The notes under the pieces are model-generated. The model made no database searches. It was not told where the DNA came from and saw only the letters and a program-made list of their open reading frames with translations. Of a stretch of 3,437 nucleotides of DNA, positions 145-3,428 are shown in pieces. The stretch lies in NCBI RefSeq assembly GCF_003334815.1, contig NZ_QOWO01000082.1; one strand, written 5' to 3'. A program made the translations under genes and the position numbers. The stretch is from Escherichia coli (GTDB lineage: Bacteria; Pseudomonadota; Gammaproteobacteria; Enterobacterales; Enterobacteriaceae). Positions within the stretch are counted from its first letter, which is position 1. Each line of letters opens with the position of its first letter.

Positions 145-486
145 GTGCCAATGGCTTCTAAAAAATTTTACTCAGATGATGACATCCAGCTGGCAAAAGC
201 TGCCTTATCGGAATTGCCGGACCTCACCGCTCAACGGAAAACATTGCGTGATTTTCTTGATGCCATTCGTGATGACATCATTGTCCTGGTAAGGACAAAG
301 GGTTATACACTGGCAGATGTTCGTGACACGCTTAAAAATGCAGGGTATGAAGTAGGAGAGAAGGCACTTCGTGACATTATTCGGGAAGCAGAATCGAAAA
401 AACCATCCCGCCGTTCTTCCTCTAAAACAGCACCTAAAAAGACAGATTCAGGCAGGAAAGATGGCATCGATATGAACAACAATTGA
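145..486 (+). CDS. Hypothetical small protein (112-113 aa) with Lys/Arg/Ser/Thr-rich C-terminal tail; possibly DNA-binding, function not recognised
   Basis: Open frame 145..486 ending at TGA 484-486. The GTG at 145 is only ~4 nt from GGAGA (136-140), so ATG 151 (spacing ~10 nt) is the more likely start. The tail KKPSRRSSSKTAPKKTDSGRK resembles tails of small nucleic-acid-binding proteins. No family confidently recognised. Confidence 0.6.
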   Translation: MPMASKKFYSDDDIQLAKAALSELPDLTAQRKTLRDFLDAIRDDIIVLVRTKGYTLADVRDTLKNAGYEVGEKALRDIIREAESKKPSRRSSSKTAPKKTDSGRKDGIDMNNN

Positions 487-571: not shown

Positions 572-1423
572 TCAGACTCGTGGCGGCAATGCACCAGGAT
601 AATACCGTGCAATAACATCATTCAGTTTTTCAACAAGGTCAGAACGCTTAAAGACAATGTGTACGGTCCCTTTCTGGTAGCCACGTACCGTAAAATATTC
701 CCCTTCTAACAGCTTACCGACATTGTCGCCGTTCCCGAGAAACTCACCATACTGCGCCCCGATGCTGCTCCGGAAGTCAGGAACGTTGCGCCCCTCCAGC
801 AGATAAAACGGACGTACCAGGTCATCCAGTGCCTCCCTTCCGCTGCAGTCCAGCGTCACACGCCCGTTACTCCAGCGGTACAGCAGGTTTTCAATAATGA
901 TTTTCTTGCCCAGACGGCAGGGATTGTTGGTTCTGTAATCCCATGACAGTTTCCTGTAGACATCAATCAGTCCTTGTTCAAATGTCTGCATCTTACTGGC
1001 ATTCAGATGGCGAAAAGTTGCCAGTACATTGTCCAGGGTGATTTCAGGACAGGTGTCGCTCATCAGCTGGCTGTTCCACTCATCACGCTGGCATGAACTC
1101 ATGAAGGTGTACATGCCCGTATCTGTCATCAGGCGGTCCCAGATTTTCCGGTCGGCAAGACGGGTGATATTCCTTTTCGCTTCTTCCGGCTTATCCATGC
1201 GACGAACGGAATCAGTCACGCAGTCTTCAAACCCGTAAAGAAAAATATCACCTGACGCATCGAGCAGAATCTTGCGCGCTGTCGCCAGGCATTCCATCGC
1301 CTGCATGAATAGTGCAATACCTTCGTTACGCTGCGCGATGATGCGGTCGATAGCCACAGACGGAATAACATCTGTCGTGCCGGCAGTATTCAGGTCAGCA
1401 GTGGGTAAAGTCTGATTCATCAC
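572..1423 (-). CDS. Conserved hypothetical protein, 283 aa, function unknown
   Basis: Long uninterrupted frame (852 nt) on the - strand with GAGGAG (complement of 1428-1433) upstream. ATG at 1420..1418 gives ~8 nt spacing and is an equally plausible start to GTG at 1423..1421. Ends at the shared terminator. No nucleotidyltransferase, methyltransferase or nuclease signature recognised by eye. Confidence 0.75.
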   Translation of the reverse strand: MMNQTLPTADLNTAGTTDVIPSVAIDRIIAQRNEGIALFMQAMECLATARKILLDASGDIFLYGFEDCVTDSVRRMDKPEEAKRNITRLADRKIWDRLMTDTGMYTFMSSCQRDEWNSQLMSDTCPEITLDNVLATFRHLNASKMQTFEQGLIDVYRKLSWDYRTNNPCRLGKKIIIENLLYRWSNGRVTLDCSGREALDDLVRPFYLLEGRNVPDFRSSIGAQYGEFLGNGDNVGKLLEGEYFTVRGYQKGTVHIVFKRSDLVEKLNDVIARYYPGALPPRV

Positions 1424-1440
1424 ATTGTCTCCTCATCGTC

Positions 1441-1890
1441 ACGACTGCCGGGTCAGCCAGGTCATTTCCCGGAGGAGCGAAGCTCCTTCTGCCGTCCGGG
1501 TCTTAGGGTATTTCCCCGCAGTGGACCTTTCCGACGGGGGACGCTCACCACGTCACGGGGCAGTTGTCCGGGGGCAGACGCAAAAGTTTTTGACGCCTGC
1601 GGCAAAAAGTTTTGTGGCTGGTACATCTCTCCCCTGGACGACTGAAACGGGATGTGGTCGTGTATGTACCCCCGGAAAGTCCGTCTGCGGAGAACAGGCC
1701 GCAGTGCGGCGGCAGACAGGCAGAGACAGCTGCGCCATCAGGCGCAGTGGCCTTACACACCGTCAGGTGTGCAGGGAGCGCCGCATCCGGCGCGACTGGA
1801 GAAAACCGACGGCACAACAACGGCATGCGGTGGTCACTGGTACACCACTCCCGCACAGGTGAAAACAGAGAAAACAGCACGACATCCATA
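1441..1890. other. GC-rich, apparently non-coding spacer containing a series of short perfect GC-stem hairpins; candidate structured RNA or DNA element
   Basis: Hand counts give roughly 55-70% GC per 60-nt line versus ~50% in flanking genes. All three + frames and two - frames are open simultaneously (stop-codon depletion from GC richness, not coding). Hairpins: 1471-1489 (loop GAA), 1685-1704, 1730-1747 (7 bp, loop ATCA), 1756-1771 (6 bp, loop GTCA), 1778-1793 (6 bp, loop CATC). Confidence 0.4.
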
Positions 1891-1900
1891 ATCAAAAAAA

Positions 1901-2262: not shown

Positions 2263-2283
2263 AGCCTGGCAGAATGCCAGGCT
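2263..2283. other. Hairpin (8-bp stem AGCCTGGC / GCCAGGCT, 5-nt loop) between the convergent HTH gene and the orphan small ORF
   Basis: Perfect inverted repeat overlapping the stop codon (TAG, 2284..2282) of the - strand small ORF. No U-tract, so it may be a transcript-stabilising stem or weak terminator. Confidence 0.3.
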
Positions 2284-2488
2284 ACTGCTCATCAGGAAAC
2301 AGCTTTTTCAGTTCTTCACCGGAAAGTCCCGTGACCTCCTGAATCCGTTCCGGCGGCCAGCCTATATCCCGCAGCCGGCAGGCTATTTCCCGCGCCACTT
2401 CAAGAGCCCCTTGTTTAAAACCTTGTTTAAAACCTTCTTTAAAACCCTCGTCGAAACCTTTCTGTATAAGACGTTCTGCAATCGTCAT
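2282..2488 (-). CDS. Orphan small protein (68 aa) paralogous to the C-terminal tail of Rpn nucleases (RpnS-like), with tetrapeptide repeats GFDE-GFKE-GFKQ-GFKQ
   Basis: Its first residues MTIAERL are identical to the internal segment MTIAERL of the upstream Rpn protein. The remainder follows the same pattern (KG...ALEvAreIA...g..pEqIqe.TGLS.EELKK). Nucleotide similarity around the ATG: 2470-2488 vs 2681-2699 is 17/19 identical. The SD is weak (GGAG ~13 nt upstream) and an intrinsic terminator lies just upstream, so expression is uncertain. Confidence 0.55.
   Translation of the reverse strand: MTIAERLIQKGFDEGFKEGFKQGFKQGALEVAREIACRLRDIGWPPERIQEVTGLSGEELKKLFPDEQ
2411..2458. repeat. In-frame 12-bp tandem repeat, 4 units (TTGTTTAAAACC x2, TTCTTTAAAACC, CTCGTCGAAACC), encoding the GFK(Q/E)/GFDE tetrapeptide repeats
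   Basis: Two identical adjacent 12-mers, a third with one mismatch and a fourth diverged, all in codon register on the - strand. A substrate for slipped-strand copy-number change without frameshift. Confidence 0.85.
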
Positions 2489-2510
2489 GCTGTTTGCTCT
2501 GCTCCTGCTG

Positions 2511-2537
2511 GCAAAAAGCCCGGCATTTTGCCGGGCT
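2511..2537 (-). terminator. Rho-independent terminator immediately downstream of the Rpn gene (- strand)
   Basis: On the - strand: AGCCCGGCA-AAA-TGCCGGGCT (7-8 bp GC stem, 3-nt loop) followed by TTTTT. It starts 13 nt after the rpn stop codon (2552..2550). Confidence 0.65.
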
Positions 2538-2549
2538 GTGATGCTCTCA

Positions 2550-2699
2550 TCAGTGAATGACTTTTTTCAGTTCAGCTTCGGAAAGTCCGGTGGCCTGCTT
2601 AATCTGCTCAGGTGTCATCCCCATTTTCTGAAGCTGACGCGCAATGGCAAGGGCTTTTTCAAGCGCACCTTTCTGCTCAAGACGTTCTGCGATTGTCAT
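2550..2699 (-). CDS. Putative intragenic small protein (49 aa, RpnS-like) translated from an internal in-frame ATG of the Rpn gene
   Basis: Internal ATG at 2699..2697 in the rpn frame, preceded by GAGGAT (complement of 2706-2711) with 7-nt spacing. Product would be MTIAERLEQKGALEKALAIARQLQKMGMTPEQIKQATGLSEAELKKVIH. Consistent with reported intragenic antitoxins of Rpn nucleases (from memory). Confidence 0.45.
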   Translation of the reverse strand: MTIAERLEQKGALEKALAIARQLQKMGMTPEQIKQATGLSEAELKKVIH

Positions 2700-3428
2700 C
2701 AGTTTATCCTCATGCTGCGGCAGGCGCTCGGCCAGCGCCCGCATAAATTCCGGTGATACAGAGTCCCCTGCGTTAACGATGTAATGAATCAGAACACGCA
2801 CCTGCTCGTCTGAAATTTCCACCATGACCTGCGGGAGTTTGTCCAGCAGCTCCATCATGTCACGATGGCGGATATGCTTCATCAGCAGCGTCAGTGCGGC
2901 CATCCGGCGATGGTTCATGATTTCATTGTCATCAACGACAGTGATATCAACCAGCGGAAACGGCTTTGTGTATATTTTAGCCGCAAGTGACGGATTCTCA
3001 AAACAGTCCAGCCAGTTCATGCTGTACGGATACGGGCTGCGCTCACCATGATAGAACAGCACCGGAATCACCAGTGGCAACGTTTTGTGCTGCTCCAGAT
3101 GTCTCTGCATCGCCGCCACACTGTAACGTAACATGCGGAAAGGCATGTACAGATTTTCGGTGCTCTGGTGCTCGATGAGCGTATAAACATAGCCATCTTC
3201 ACCCCCGGTGGTTTTCACGCTCCAGAGGATATCGCTGGCGTACTGATGCAGGTCCGGCTCAACAAAGGTGGCGGGTTCCAGCTTCAGCGTGGACAGGTCG
3301 CACAACTGCCGGTACTCCGCCGGAAGATGCAGTTCCAGAAAATCTCTGGCGACGTCGGGATTCGCCAGGAACGACCGGAACGCGGCATCATGCGGCGTGG
3401 GCGTTGTGGTGTTTTTCTTCTTACTCAC
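2550..3428 (-). CDS. Rpn family recombination-promoting nuclease / YhgA-like putative transposase (PD-(D/E)xK nuclease), 292 aa
   Basis: N-terminus TPHDAAFRSFLANPDVARDFLELHLP and the core DILWSVKT...YVYTLIEHQS match the YhgA/Rpn family (Pfam Transposase_31-like) as I recall it. The C-terminal tail ...AERLEQKG...TGLSEAELKK is the typical Rpn tail. GTG start at 3428..3426 with GGAGG (complement of 3433-3437) 4 nt upstream. Gene is complete, but its promoter lies outside the window. Confidence 0.9.
   Translation of the reverse strand: MSKKKNTTTPTPHDAAFRSFLANPDVARDFLELHLPAEYRQLCDLSTLKLEPATFVEPDLHQYASDILWSVKTTGGEDGYVYTLIEHQSTENLYMPFRMLRYSVAAMQRHLEQHKTLPLVIPVLFYHGERSPYPYSMNWLDCFENPSLAAKIYTKPFPLVDITVVDDNEIMNHRRMAALTLLMKHIRHRDMMELLDKLPQVMVEISDEQVRVLIHYIVNAGDSVSPEFMRALAERLPQHEDKLMTIAERLEQKGALEKALAIARQLQKMGMTPEQIKQATGLSEAELKKVIH
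2706..2711 (-). promoter_or_regulatory. Internal Shine-Dalgarno (GAGGAT) inside the Rpn coding sequence, serving the internal ATG at 2699
   Basis: - strand reads GAGGATAAACTG-ATG; AGGA lies 7-8 nt upstream of the ATG, which is near-optimal spacing. Confidence 0.4.

Follow-up and report, generated by a model that had tools for sequence, protein, structure and literature searches.

The closest described relatives of the protein considered here are orphan methyltransferases (MTases) of phages and ICEs that contain a DUF4942 module (PHROG 6263 and PHROG 32703), such as gp095 of Salmonella phage SSU5, gp22 of Pseudomonas phage phiPSA1, gp32 of Marinomonas phage P12026, and gp39 of Aeromonas phage 56. 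In PHROG 6263 (548 positions), DUF4942 is N-terminal and the MTase is C-terminal, while PHROG 32703 has the reverse order. The fused proteins carry the VLEPSAGxG and MNPPFS motifs of a γ-class SAM-dependent adenine MTase core, and all four phage homologues inspected are fusions of 519–561 residues. The closest solved relative of the core is M.TaqI (E = 1.4e-5), a γ-class N6-adenine DNA MTase with a C-terminal target-recognition domain (TRD). Another described enzyme, M.EcoGIX (YfbB of R64), is a single-strand-specific orphan adenine methylase of IncI and IncF leading regions.

Samuel et al. (2024) count DUF4942 among the large uncharacterised leading-region families. Their family 24 (‘Uncharacterized; DUF4942; Methyltransferase’, 2171 members, FDR p = 0) has a median position of 1 from oriT and a T-strand-compatible orientation (‘Strand 1’). 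In plasmid pESBL, RNA-seq and 5′ RACE revealed six zygotically induced operons with ssDNA promoters; these include ssi1–3, for which ssDNA promoter activity and mapped start sites were reported. The family protein goes by the name YgfB in plasmids of the R64 type, Hp22 in pESBL, and YdiA in certain others. The leading region of the classical F plasmid (NC_002483) contains no DUF4942 gene, and the name YdiA therefore comes from other plasmids. The literature mentions DUF4942 in four papers, each time in passing, nowhere names PF13708, and gives no experimental function; searches on the function of YdiA or YgfB found nothing. The gene and the family are already catalogued.

We analysed a window of 3,437 nucleotides from Escherichia coli, which sequence comparison identifies as the leading region of an IncI1/I-γ conjugative resistance plasmid, starting inside oriT. 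Matches to the window are found in 2092 plasmid records, which with few exceptions belong to conjugative IncI types. Its position 1 corresponds to pESBL 70367 in the alignment of the window with pESBL, where oriT spans 70354–70436 (Yamaichi et al., Table 2). In NZ_CP039714 and pESBL, the genes run nikB-nikA-oriT-yggA-DUF4942-...-Rpn-ardA-psiA-psiB-ssb, and the leading genes all share one strand. The first-pass annotation had described an accessory region that also contains an Rpn defence locus. This description gives way to that of an IncI leading region next to oriT and nikA, and Rpn families are themselves enriched in leading regions. The features are as follows.

1–14, no strand assigned: left edge of oriT
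530–566, − strand: intrinsic terminator of ygfB (stem 538–544/553–559, then U8 at 530–537)
572–1420, − strand: DUF4942 coding sequence (YgfB, pESBL Hp22), 282 residues from the ATG at 1420, in the open reading frame list and at the same coordinates in RefSeq (WP_001077032.1)
1429–1434, − strand: Shine–Dalgarno sequence GAGGAG, 8 nt 5′ of the ygfB ATG, read from the sequence
1468–1799, + strand: class-1 ssDNA promoter repeat (ColIb-P9 ssi/F Frpo type), main hairpin at about 1481–1734
1898–1985, no strand assigned: AAAGTGAA-N5-TTCACTTT palindrome, present twice in the interval from the hairpin block to the HTH gene
2000–2251, + strand: 83-residue helix-turn-helix (HTH) protein (pESBL Hp21), divergent from ygfB
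2282–3428, − strand: Rpn family nuclease and a free-standing 68-residue Rpn C-terminal tail, both in the next leading-region operon

Placed between oriT and the ssb/psiB/ardA block and no more than 1.4 kb from oriT, ygfB is on the flank that reaches the recipient first. It points towards oriT and shares its strand with ardA, psiA, psiB, and ssb; its template is accordingly the transferred (+) strand. A DUF4942 protein is encoded in at least 5000 of 72,556 plasmid records, and 92% of those plasmids are conjugative. The neighbourhood analysis shows recurring company: ArdA, KlcA, SSB, PsiB, and ParB-like genes accompany DUF4942 in plasmids, and the paralogues in chromosomal islands travel with genes for KlcA-like antirestriction proteins, RadC, and DUF932. 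The present plasmid also has a ParB-like gene (a HerB homologue) in the ssb operon and an orphan leading-region methylase.

The open reading frame at 572–1423 (−), which starts at an in-frame GTG at 1423 and has 283 codons, is present as first described. However, the ATG at 1420, one codon 3′ of the GTG, is the likelier start, because RefSeq annotates the gene so and homologues align from that Met. The Shine–Dalgarno sequence called good at first is borne out, as is the gene's own terminator, a strong one: the hairpin at 538–559 begins 12 nt past the stop codon (572–574), and the − strand has an RNA folding energy of −23.5 kcal/mol (z = −5.5). On the + strand, the same region likewise folds into a hairpin, which follows the convergent gene at 151–486 (RNA fold, −18.8 kcal/mol, z = −5.4). 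A weak terminator-like Rfam match is found at 530–576. Compared with a syntenic orthologue of 78% identity, ygfB has a dN/dS of 0.14; it is a real gene under purifying selection. With an ssDNA-type promoter block on its 5′ side and its own terminator on the 3′ side, ygfB forms a one-gene unit. The hairpin-rich block, formerly regarded as a separate divergent neighbour, is in fact the 5′ region of ygfB itself, between ygfB and the divergent HTH gene.

The block folds as ssDNA with −115.1 kcal/mol (z = −6.8) on the + strand versus −95.9 kcal/mol (z = −3.1) on the − strand. The plasmid contains three copies of it; the copy at ygfB is the nearest to oriT, and the other two, with approximately 80% identity, precede the ssb operon and the Rpn operon. 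The counterpart of the ygfB block directly 5′ of Hp22 in pESBL is 97% identical to it, and the core of the block is 74–77% identical to F-type plasmids. In a diverged orthologous locus, the block is kept at 83% versus 77.7% for the coding sequence. No pair of −35/−10 hexamers scoring at least 8 of 12 is found on the 3′ arm of the hairpin. An Rfam search of the whole window gives nothing at the gathering level, and the hairpin block corresponds to no Rfam family. Judging from the fold, the copies, and the identities to pESBL and the F core, an Frpo/ssi-type promoter is located directly 5′ of ygfB and is predicted to promote leftward transcription into the gene while the + strand (T-strand) is single-stranded. 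Because the upstream block is a copy of this class-1 ssDNA promoter, transcription of ygfB from the incoming strand probably starts within minutes of transfer, by analogy with pESBL, where induction was published at the operon level and the gene-level induction of Hp22 is a reading of the operon map. Since ygfB is the closest gene to oriT with a dedicated single-strand promoter in IncI plasmids, YgfB is probably among the first plasmid products in the new host.

The palindrome between the block and the HTH gene has 0 matches expected by chance, and the pair is probably an operator, as far as its sequence indicates. A σ70-like site on the − strand (1982–1955) overlaps the pair.

The Rpn nuclease (2550–3428) matches the RpnA-like family of NCBIfam (E = 5e-99), and the 68-residue tail (2282–2488) matches positions 223–273 of TIGR01784. 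Published work describes Rpn proteins as toxic nucleases that act against phages and have intragenic antitoxins, and ygfB and rpn are 1.1 kb apart. Both points would agree with a defence role, in which YgfB and the neighbouring Rpn nuclease protect the host or the plasmid from phages or competing plasmids. However, the HTH gene and the promoter block part the two genes into separate transcription units, and DUF4942 is widely present without Rpn. The sole match of YgfB in PADLOC-DB (15 bits over 34 residues) is insignificant, and the leading-region position, the ssDNA promoter, and the homologues in phage early regions are hallmarks of the invader's side. A defence role is extremely improbable in our judgment. 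The initial idea of a defence or anti-defence function by association is hence retained in one half only; the context was a useful hint, and it strengthens the side of anti-defence or establishment while the side of defence recedes. The evidence points to anti-defence or establishment because of the orientation, the Frpo/ssi-type promoter, the leading-region enrichment, the antirestriction company, and the insignificant PADLOC match, which is still guilt by association.

YgfB matches the Pfam family DUF4942 (PF13708) with E = 6.9e-50 over residues 90–275 (model positions 5–189 of 190), and this match assigns it to the family. The relatives comprise 3129 cluster representatives (50% identity, E ≤ 1e-3), and PF13708 is the sole Pfam domain in 120 of 120 homologues among the matches listed. 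YgfB has no family match in NCBIfam and no ParB or HTH signature in Pfam, and PDB searches with the single sequence and with a 52-sequence profile gave nothing below E = 0.28. The AF2 model of YgfB has a pLDDT of 84, and a structure search with the predicted fold found no relative outside DUF4942. The protein had been called conserved-looking, devoid of a recognisable catalytic signature, and unassignable to a family. The family size and the dN/dS agree with the first description and the searches with the second, while the third is true of catalytic families but not of domain families.

Asp200, His254, and Asn267 are invariant in both the standalone and the MTase-fused DUF4942 sets. These residues may form an active site, with which YgfB would act as a new nuclease or hydrolase on host nucleic acid or on a defence component. 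However, the predicted fold has no significant structural match to a nuclease or hydrolase fold, the Pfam, NCBIfam, and PDB sequence searches gave no enzyme match, and the invariant polar residues could equally be a binding site. A new enzyme is therefore quite unlikely. In neither sequence nor structure does DUF4942 resemble the known anti-restriction or anti-CRISPR proteins. Compared with ArdA, ArdB/KlcA, ArdC, and Ocr-type mimics, YgfB shows neither similarity nor a strongly acidic surface; its pI of 5.85 is near neutral, and it is no acidic DNA mimic.

YgfB was also considered as a SAM-dependent DNA MTase and rejected as such, as it has no SAM-binding motif I of the FxGxG type, no catalytic motif IV of the (D/N)PP(Y/F) type, and no MTase match in Pfam or NCBIfam. 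VLEPSAGxG and MNPPFS are confined to the C-terminal extension of the fused relatives, which YgfB lacks, and the UniProt names ‘Methyltransferase’ for this protein are carried over from the fusions. An AF2 model of a fusion, built from a shallow alignment, has two confident domains and a disordered linker (pTM 0.51). With this flexible linker, the model shows no catalytic cleft between DUF4942 and the MTase, and it neither backs nor rules out a TRD-like docking of DUF4942 on the MTase.

The fusions in both orders raise another possibility, that YgfB serves a split enzyme as its specificity or DNA-loading subunit and directs protective methylation in trans by an MTase encoded elsewhere, the candidates being a YdcA-like γ core, the M.EcoGIX-type single-strand methylase of the plasmid, and a host enzyme. 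A free-standing 187-residue MTase core of the fused kind, 36–39% identical, is found in the leading regions of at least 5000 IncF-type plasmids, and the orphan methylase in the same plasmid's leading region would also fit. However, the IncF core adjoins DUF3560 rather than DUF4942. The IncI methylase is of the β-class and unrelated to the core fused to DUF4942, and it shields pESBL from restriction (Yamaichi et al.). No cognate MTase core is encoded in the 28-kb leading region or in the whole of pESBL, and a YdcA-like core lies within 10 kb at only 1 of 80 genomic DUF4942 loci, a set found with a 16-sequence alignment and biased towards Enterobacterales. A split enzyme is very unlikely on this evidence. 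Two further candidates were discarded: DUF3560 is unrelated to DUF4942 or the fusion linker, and the overlapping 401-residue gene downstream in IncHI2 encodes a coiled-coil protein, not an MTase.

The position of ygfB also allows a role in establishment unrelated to immunity, either in synthesis of the complementary strand or recircularisation near the oriT end, or in transient host reprogramming as by the ParB-like HerB (YfjB). The gene is the nearest to oriT and is served by an ssDNA promoter of its own, Frpo-type elements have, according to published work, a second capacity as priming sites for DNA synthesis, and HerB, a leading-region protein, was reported to act on host physiology rather than defence. 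Matings into K-12 are without phenotype: in the Tn-seq of pESBL, Hp22 was scored ‘non-essential’ for maintenance and for transfer into E. coli K-12 (Yamaichi et al.). ArdA and M.EcoGIX were scored the same as Hp22 there, and M.EcoGIX showed a phenotype only with restricting recipients. However, DUF4942 is also encoded in the early regions of phages and in non-conjugative chromosomal islands, settings in which T-strand processing plays no part; in other plasmid types its gene lies several genes away from oriT; and the recurrent fusion to a DNA MTase points to protection of foreign DNA. Such a role is unlikely, in our estimation.

We propose, with a probability of roughly 0.4, that YgfB is an early-expressed binding module of the IncI leading region, an anti-restriction or establishment factor and not a defence protein. 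By extrapolation from the published pESBL data, transcription of ygfB from the incoming single strand would begin within minutes and be silenced once the plasmid is double-stranded. DUF4942 would be an autonomously folding target-binding module. Because phages appear to join it, before or after, to a small M.TaqI-like adenine MTase core through a flexible linker, DUF4942 may guide an enzyme to DNA or to a host complex bound there. Lacking both the MTase part and a core in cis, the plasmid protein most likely acts by binding alone, which may shield the entering DNA or block a restriction-type nuclease of the recipient. YgfB might thus help the plasmid survive entry, most likely against restriction, a suggestion we make with low confidence. 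DNA binding by YgfB is suggested by elimination only, because its predicted fold has no relative outside the family.

A bolder version of this proposal is possible but doubtful. YgfB and DUF4942 would represent a new anti-restriction or anti-defence class with its own fold, the first protein made from the incoming strand, which neutralises a DNA-targeting system of the recipient through the invariant surface of Asp200, His254, and Asn267; phages would reuse the module as a tether to deliver a promiscuous adenine MTase to the same target.

Important vehicles of ESBL and carbapenemase genes include IncI1, IncL/M (pOXA-48), IncF(K), IncHI, and plasmids related to them. A function for YgfB would fill one of the larger gaps among leading-region functions. 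An anti-restriction activity of YgfB, if real, would contribute to explaining host range and make the protein a possible point of attack for preventing plasmid establishment. The connection to phage MTases gives experiments on DUF4942 a concrete starting point.

Among the known systems, HerB resembles YgfB as a zygotically induced leading-region protein that was previously uncharacterised. HerB is, however, a CTP-binding ParB/HTH protein, and YgfB has a different fold. M.EcoGIX shares with YgfB the leading-region location, an ssDNA promoter of its own, and the same Tn-seq score, but it is a β-class enzyme, with DPPY before FxGxG, unrelated both to YgfB and to the γ core fused to DUF4942. ArdA and KlcA/ArdB belong to the same compartment as YgfB, with the same orientation, ssDNA promoters for early expression, and dispensability in K-12 matings, and KlcA-like genes are found alongside DUF4942 both in plasmids and in chromosomal islands. 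YgfB differs from them in sequence, fold, and pI, and an anti-restriction role is that of a candidate, drawn by analogy. The phage and ICE MTases differ from YgfB in their greater length and in the γ-class core with VLEPSAGxG and NPPF; YgfB ends where the linker of the fusions begins, and its plasmid is without such a core. In contrast, they share the whole DUF4942 module (PHROG 6263 positions 26–286 align with YgfB 24–279, E = 9e-18), the same invariant residues, including Trp94 besides the three noted above, and a place in the early or entry regions of mobile elements. The order in PHROG 32703, MTase followed by DUF4942, mirrors that of MTase and TRD in M.TaqI.

The open reading frame at 572..1423 on the minus strand is a real gene, as the first-pass annotation had proposed, since its product YgfB matches Pfam DUF4942 (E = 6.9e-50), the family profile matches 3129 cluster representatives (50% identity clusters, E <= 1e-3), and comparison with a syntenic orthologue, 78% identical in amino acids, gives a dN/dS of 0.14 (dN = 0.138, dS = 1.01). 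Translation probably begins one codon later than in the 283-codon frame, since RefSeq annotates the 282-aa product from the ATG in identical plasmids and the alignments of homologues begin at the Met of this ATG. The good Shine–Dalgarno sequence and the gene's own terminator, both part of the earlier description, are found at the following positions.

Features of the DUF4942 gene and its flanks
572..1423, minus strand: ORF of 283 codons from GTG (ORF list)
1420, minus strand: probable start ATG, directly after the GTG codon, giving the 282-aa product
1429-1434, minus strand: Shine–Dalgarno GAGGAG, 8 nt 5' of the ATG, read from the sequence
572-574, minus strand: stop codon
538-544/553-559, minus strand: G+C-rich terminator hairpin, 12 nt 3' of the stop, then eight U
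~1481-1734, plus strand: main imperfect hairpin, with seven G-T pairs

The terminator hairpin has a folding energy of −23.5 kcal/mol (z = −5.5), and the same hairpin forms on the opposite strand, 3' of the convergent gene 151-486. A decaying methyltransferase relic is excluded by the dN/dS value and by conservation in > 3000 clusters.

The whole window is matched in 2092 plasmid records, chiefly from E. coli and Salmonella (megablast), 1914 of which are typed as conjugative. In the Salmonella plasmid NZ_CP039714 (IncI-gamma/K1, MOBP, MPF_I), the gene order is trbC ... nikB - nikA - oriT - yggA ('MobC') - DUF4942 - HTH - Rpn tail - Rpn - two small genes - ardA - psiA - psiB - ParB-like - DUF905 - ssb - ... 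- klcA-type antirestriction - ... - DNA methylase. The arrangement is the same in pESBL (NC_018659.1, E. coli O104:H4), where the DUF4942 gene (O3K_RS26015, 68947-69795; product Hp22) is 98.6% identical to that of the window. Position 1 of the window aligns with pESBL 70367, and the oriT of this plasmid is at 70354-70436 (Yamaichi et al., NAR 2014). The window thus starts within oriT, and the DUF4942 gene takes up roughly 0.56-1.41 kb of the first DNA entering a recipient. It shares its strand with ardA, psiB, and ssb, is directed towards oriT, and has the transferred plus strand as its template. The gene adjoining oriT, 151-486 (+), encodes the 111-aa YggA (pESBL Hp23); it is directed away from oriT, and therefore cannot be transcribed from the entering strand. 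Its pipeline name, 'molybdopterin-guanine dinucleotide biosynthesis protein MobC', is backed by no family search.

The hairpin-rich block upstream is the promoter region of the DUF4942 gene. When the 477 nt 5' of the gene (1424-1900) are folded as ssDNA, the plus strand reaches −115.1 kcal/mol (z = −6.8), and the fold is much weaker on the minus strand (−95.9 kcal/mol, z = −3.1). Two more copies of the block (1468-1799) are present in the same plasmid in the same orientation with ~80% identity, one 5' of ssb and the other 5' of the operon ending with Rpn. pESBL carries the same three copies, the one next to the Hp22 gene being 97% identical to the window, and the apical core shares 74-77% identity with F-type plasmid sequence. 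In pESBL, six operons, each with a large ssDNA hairpin in front, are induced up to ~500-fold within 15 min of conjugation, with transcription starts confirmed by 5' RACE; three of the six hairpins are 'class 1', corresponding to ColIb-P9 ssi1-3 and related to F Frpo (Wen et al., NAR 2025). Canonical −35/−10 hexamers were sought in the hairpin stem, and none could be placed. Since the DUF4942 gene alone lies between the oriT-proximal copy and the terminator, we infer that it is the one-gene unit which this promoter drives. In a diverged IncI-type orthologous locus (window 1424-1900 compared with L103 7400-8000), the promoter block is 83% identical, and the DUF4942 coding sequence is less so (77.7% at the nucleotide level).

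Between the block and the gene of the 83-aa HTH protein (2000-2251; pESBL Hp21), the palindrome AAAGTGAA-N5-TTCACTTT occurs in two exact copies (1898-1918 and 1965-1985; chance expectation 0); the second copy shares positions with a sigma-70-like minus-strand site (1982-1955). The HTH protein probably has its operator here, and the pair might govern transcription from double-stranded DNA in the direction of the DUF4942 gene.

DUF4942 proteins are encoded in at least 5000 plasmid records (tblastn), 4599 of the matches listed being conjugative, with hosts including Escherichia, Klebsiella, Salmonella, Enterobacter, Serratia, Providencia, and Pseudomonas, among others. In the leading region of pOXA-48-type IncL/M plasmids, DUF4942 and its companions (ssb, KlcA-type antirestriction, DUF1380, Hha, and JAB/RadC) are all directed towards mobA/oriT. 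The gene is flanked by psiA and an N6 methylase near traM in one IncFII(K) plasmid, the fused form has a ParB-like gene and an ArdC-like metallopeptidase in its vicinity in one Paracoccus plasmid, and some relatives are found in phage early regions. Unbiased clustering of adjacent ORFs at 80 loci from GTDB genomes gave an upstream co-directional module of RadC (52/80), CbtA-like (49/80), CbeA-like (44/80), DUF932-like (32/80), GTPase (28/80), and KlcA/YfjX-like antirestriction (25/80) proteins. RadC and the GTPase are confirmed by NCBIfam, and the other names are those we take to apply from the sequences and the SRL island table. This table lists YfjX/KlcA, YeeS, YeeU, and YeeV, and DUF4942 follows them after a few ORFs.

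The suggestion of a defence or anti-defence function by association holds in part. The gene keeps company with the entry toolkit of the plasmid and not with a defence island, and a defence role for YgfB is highly improbable.

Other features of these loci should be noted. In IncHI2 (L004 6983-9003), there is a 4-bp overlap between a distant DUF4942 gene (23% identity) and the downstream gene for a 401-aa SMC/crescentin-like coiled-coil protein, which suggests a two-gene unit. In Serratia sp. DD3 (L040-L043) and Tenebrionibacter intestinalis (L047, L075, and L081), three or four DUF4942 loci are spread over different contigs of a single genome, consistent with several copies of a CP4-57-like island module. 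In the window, downstream of a full-length Rpn nuclease gene (2550-3428, −), a free-standing 68-aa ORF (2282-2488, −) copies the Rpn C-terminal tail with four (E/Q)GFK tetrapeptide repeats. It resembles the RpnS antitoxins, which are small, intragenic, and have variable four-residue repeats (PMC10400941), but is a separate gene here. Leading regions show enrichment for DUF932 families and for both Rpn families, the latter at positions 3-4 from oriT.

The lack of a recognizable catalytic signature in YgfB, stated in the first-pass annotation, is upheld: no match was found among NCBIfam models, no relative in the PDB by sequence and profile searches, no meaningful match in PADLOC, and no methyltransferase motif in the protein. 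AlphaFold2 gives a confident model (26 homologues; pLDDT 84.2, pTM 0.69), in which residues 1-17 are disordered, 21-159 make up a long stretch of helices, and 166-273 form an alpha/beta part. The structure search proposed earlier, performed with Foldseek against AFDB50, retrieved DUF4942 proteins only, and the predicted fold is one with no detectable relative outside the family. The near-neutral charge (pI 5.85; 38 acidic and 36 basic residues) rules out a DNA mimic of the Ocr/ArdA type. W94, L97, G150, D200, H254, and N267 are invariant in 52 diverse standalone members, and four of these residues (W94, D200, H254, and N267) do not vary in 11 fused relatives either; the pattern points to a conserved functional site. 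That YgfB is a new enzyme built on D200/H254/N267, a reading that overlaps the other alternatives, is unlikely.

The first clue to function comes from PHROGs, where YgfB matches positions 26-286 of phrog_6263 ('DNA methyltransferase', 548 positions) and 203-474 of phrog_32703 (480 positions). Six of the best 150 family representatives are 460-560 aa long, and their C-terminal part is a SAM-dependent methyltransferase domain (Pfam MTS and others) in which motif I VLEPSAGxG precedes motif IV MNPPFS; we take this to be the order of gamma-class amino-methyltransferases. All four phage homologues inspected (SSU5, phiPSA1, P12026, and Aeromonas phage 56) are such fusions (519-561 aa), and their genes occupy early or nin-type regions. 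The core matches phrog_6263 at 392-543 but phrog_32703 at 9-125, so that the two domains occur in either order. It is also found as a module within giant proteins of phages and plasmids, among them a DarB-like family. The AF2 model of a 467-aa fusion, built on a shallow alignment of 11 sequences, shows two confident domains and a disordered linker (271-286) with a low pTM (0.51), which fits an autonomous module tethered to an enzyme.

These fusions raise the alternative that YgfB works with a methyltransferase partner in trans. A free-standing 187-aa core (YdcA-like, 'class I SAM-dependent methyltransferase') does exist, 36-39% identical to the fused cores and present in at least 5000 plasmids, mostly IncF. 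However, in IncF leading regions it always follows a 453-aa DUF3560 protein, unrelated to DUF4942, and it was found neither within the leading region (28 kb) of the IncI-gamma plasmid, nor anywhere in complete pESBL, nor in the retrieved 14.8-20.8 kb stretches of IncL/M, IncHI2, IncFIB(K), and MOBH plasmid loci. A true homologue lies within 10 kb at only one of the 80 genomic loci; five others have weak matches, most on the opposite strand within ORFs of ~530-660 aa. The IncI methylase (M.EcoGIX type), in which DPPY precedes FxGxG, presumably the beta-class order, is unrelated to the fused core. Since the cognate core was not found in these IncI plasmids and the resident methylase is unrelated, YgfB as half of a split enzyme is not supported, and a partner in trans is quite unlikely.

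DUF3560 may be another accessory module for the YdcA-type core, a minimal 187-aa M.TaqI-like methyltransferase in IncF-type leading regions, which it precedes with a ~47-bp gap (L013 11514-13486, L017 7593-9564, and L018 7598-9564). A 76-aa ORF (~231 bp) lies directly 5' of DUF3560, DUF4942, and N6-methylase genes in F-type leading regions (L017 7311-7541; L018 7316-7546; L020 9674-9904 and 12482-12712), as if it were their standard first cistron.

The gene, its family, its position, and its operon-level early induction are already known, and full-text searches of the literature yield four mentions of DUF4942, all in passing, and no mention of PF13708. Transposon analysis rated Hp22 'non-essential 1.00' both for plasmid maintenance and for transfer into E. 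coli K-12, a score shared by ArdA, PsiB, and M.EcoGIX, the last of which has a phenotype limited to restricting recipients (Yamaichi et al., NAR 2014). An establishment role outside immunity is rather doubtful.

YgfB is a stand-alone protein that is under selection and occurs widely; its gene is part of the DNA that enters first, and stands behind a validated type of ssDNA promoter. We propose that DUF4942 is an autonomous binding module, which phages would join flexibly, in either order, to a small methyltransferase core without other accessory domains. Most simply, DUF4942 would provide the contact with DNA or with a target bound to it. On the plasmid, the protein has neither enzyme nor cognate core, and would therefore act through binding alone, shielding the entering DNA or blocking a recipient nuclease/restriction complex in the single-strand-to-double-strand window; to this tentative reading we give a probability of about 0.4.

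The analysis adds the anatomy of a one-gene unit at the edge of oriT, in which an ssDNA promoter, the coding sequence, and a terminator follow one another, the lack of any relative of the DUF4942 fold, and a domain-fusion link to an M.TaqI-like core that IncI plasmids do without. YgfB is less a surprise than a good target for experiments. M.TaqI is the closest solved relative of the fused core (E = 1.4e-5), and compared with the phage fusions, YgfB ends where their linker begins.
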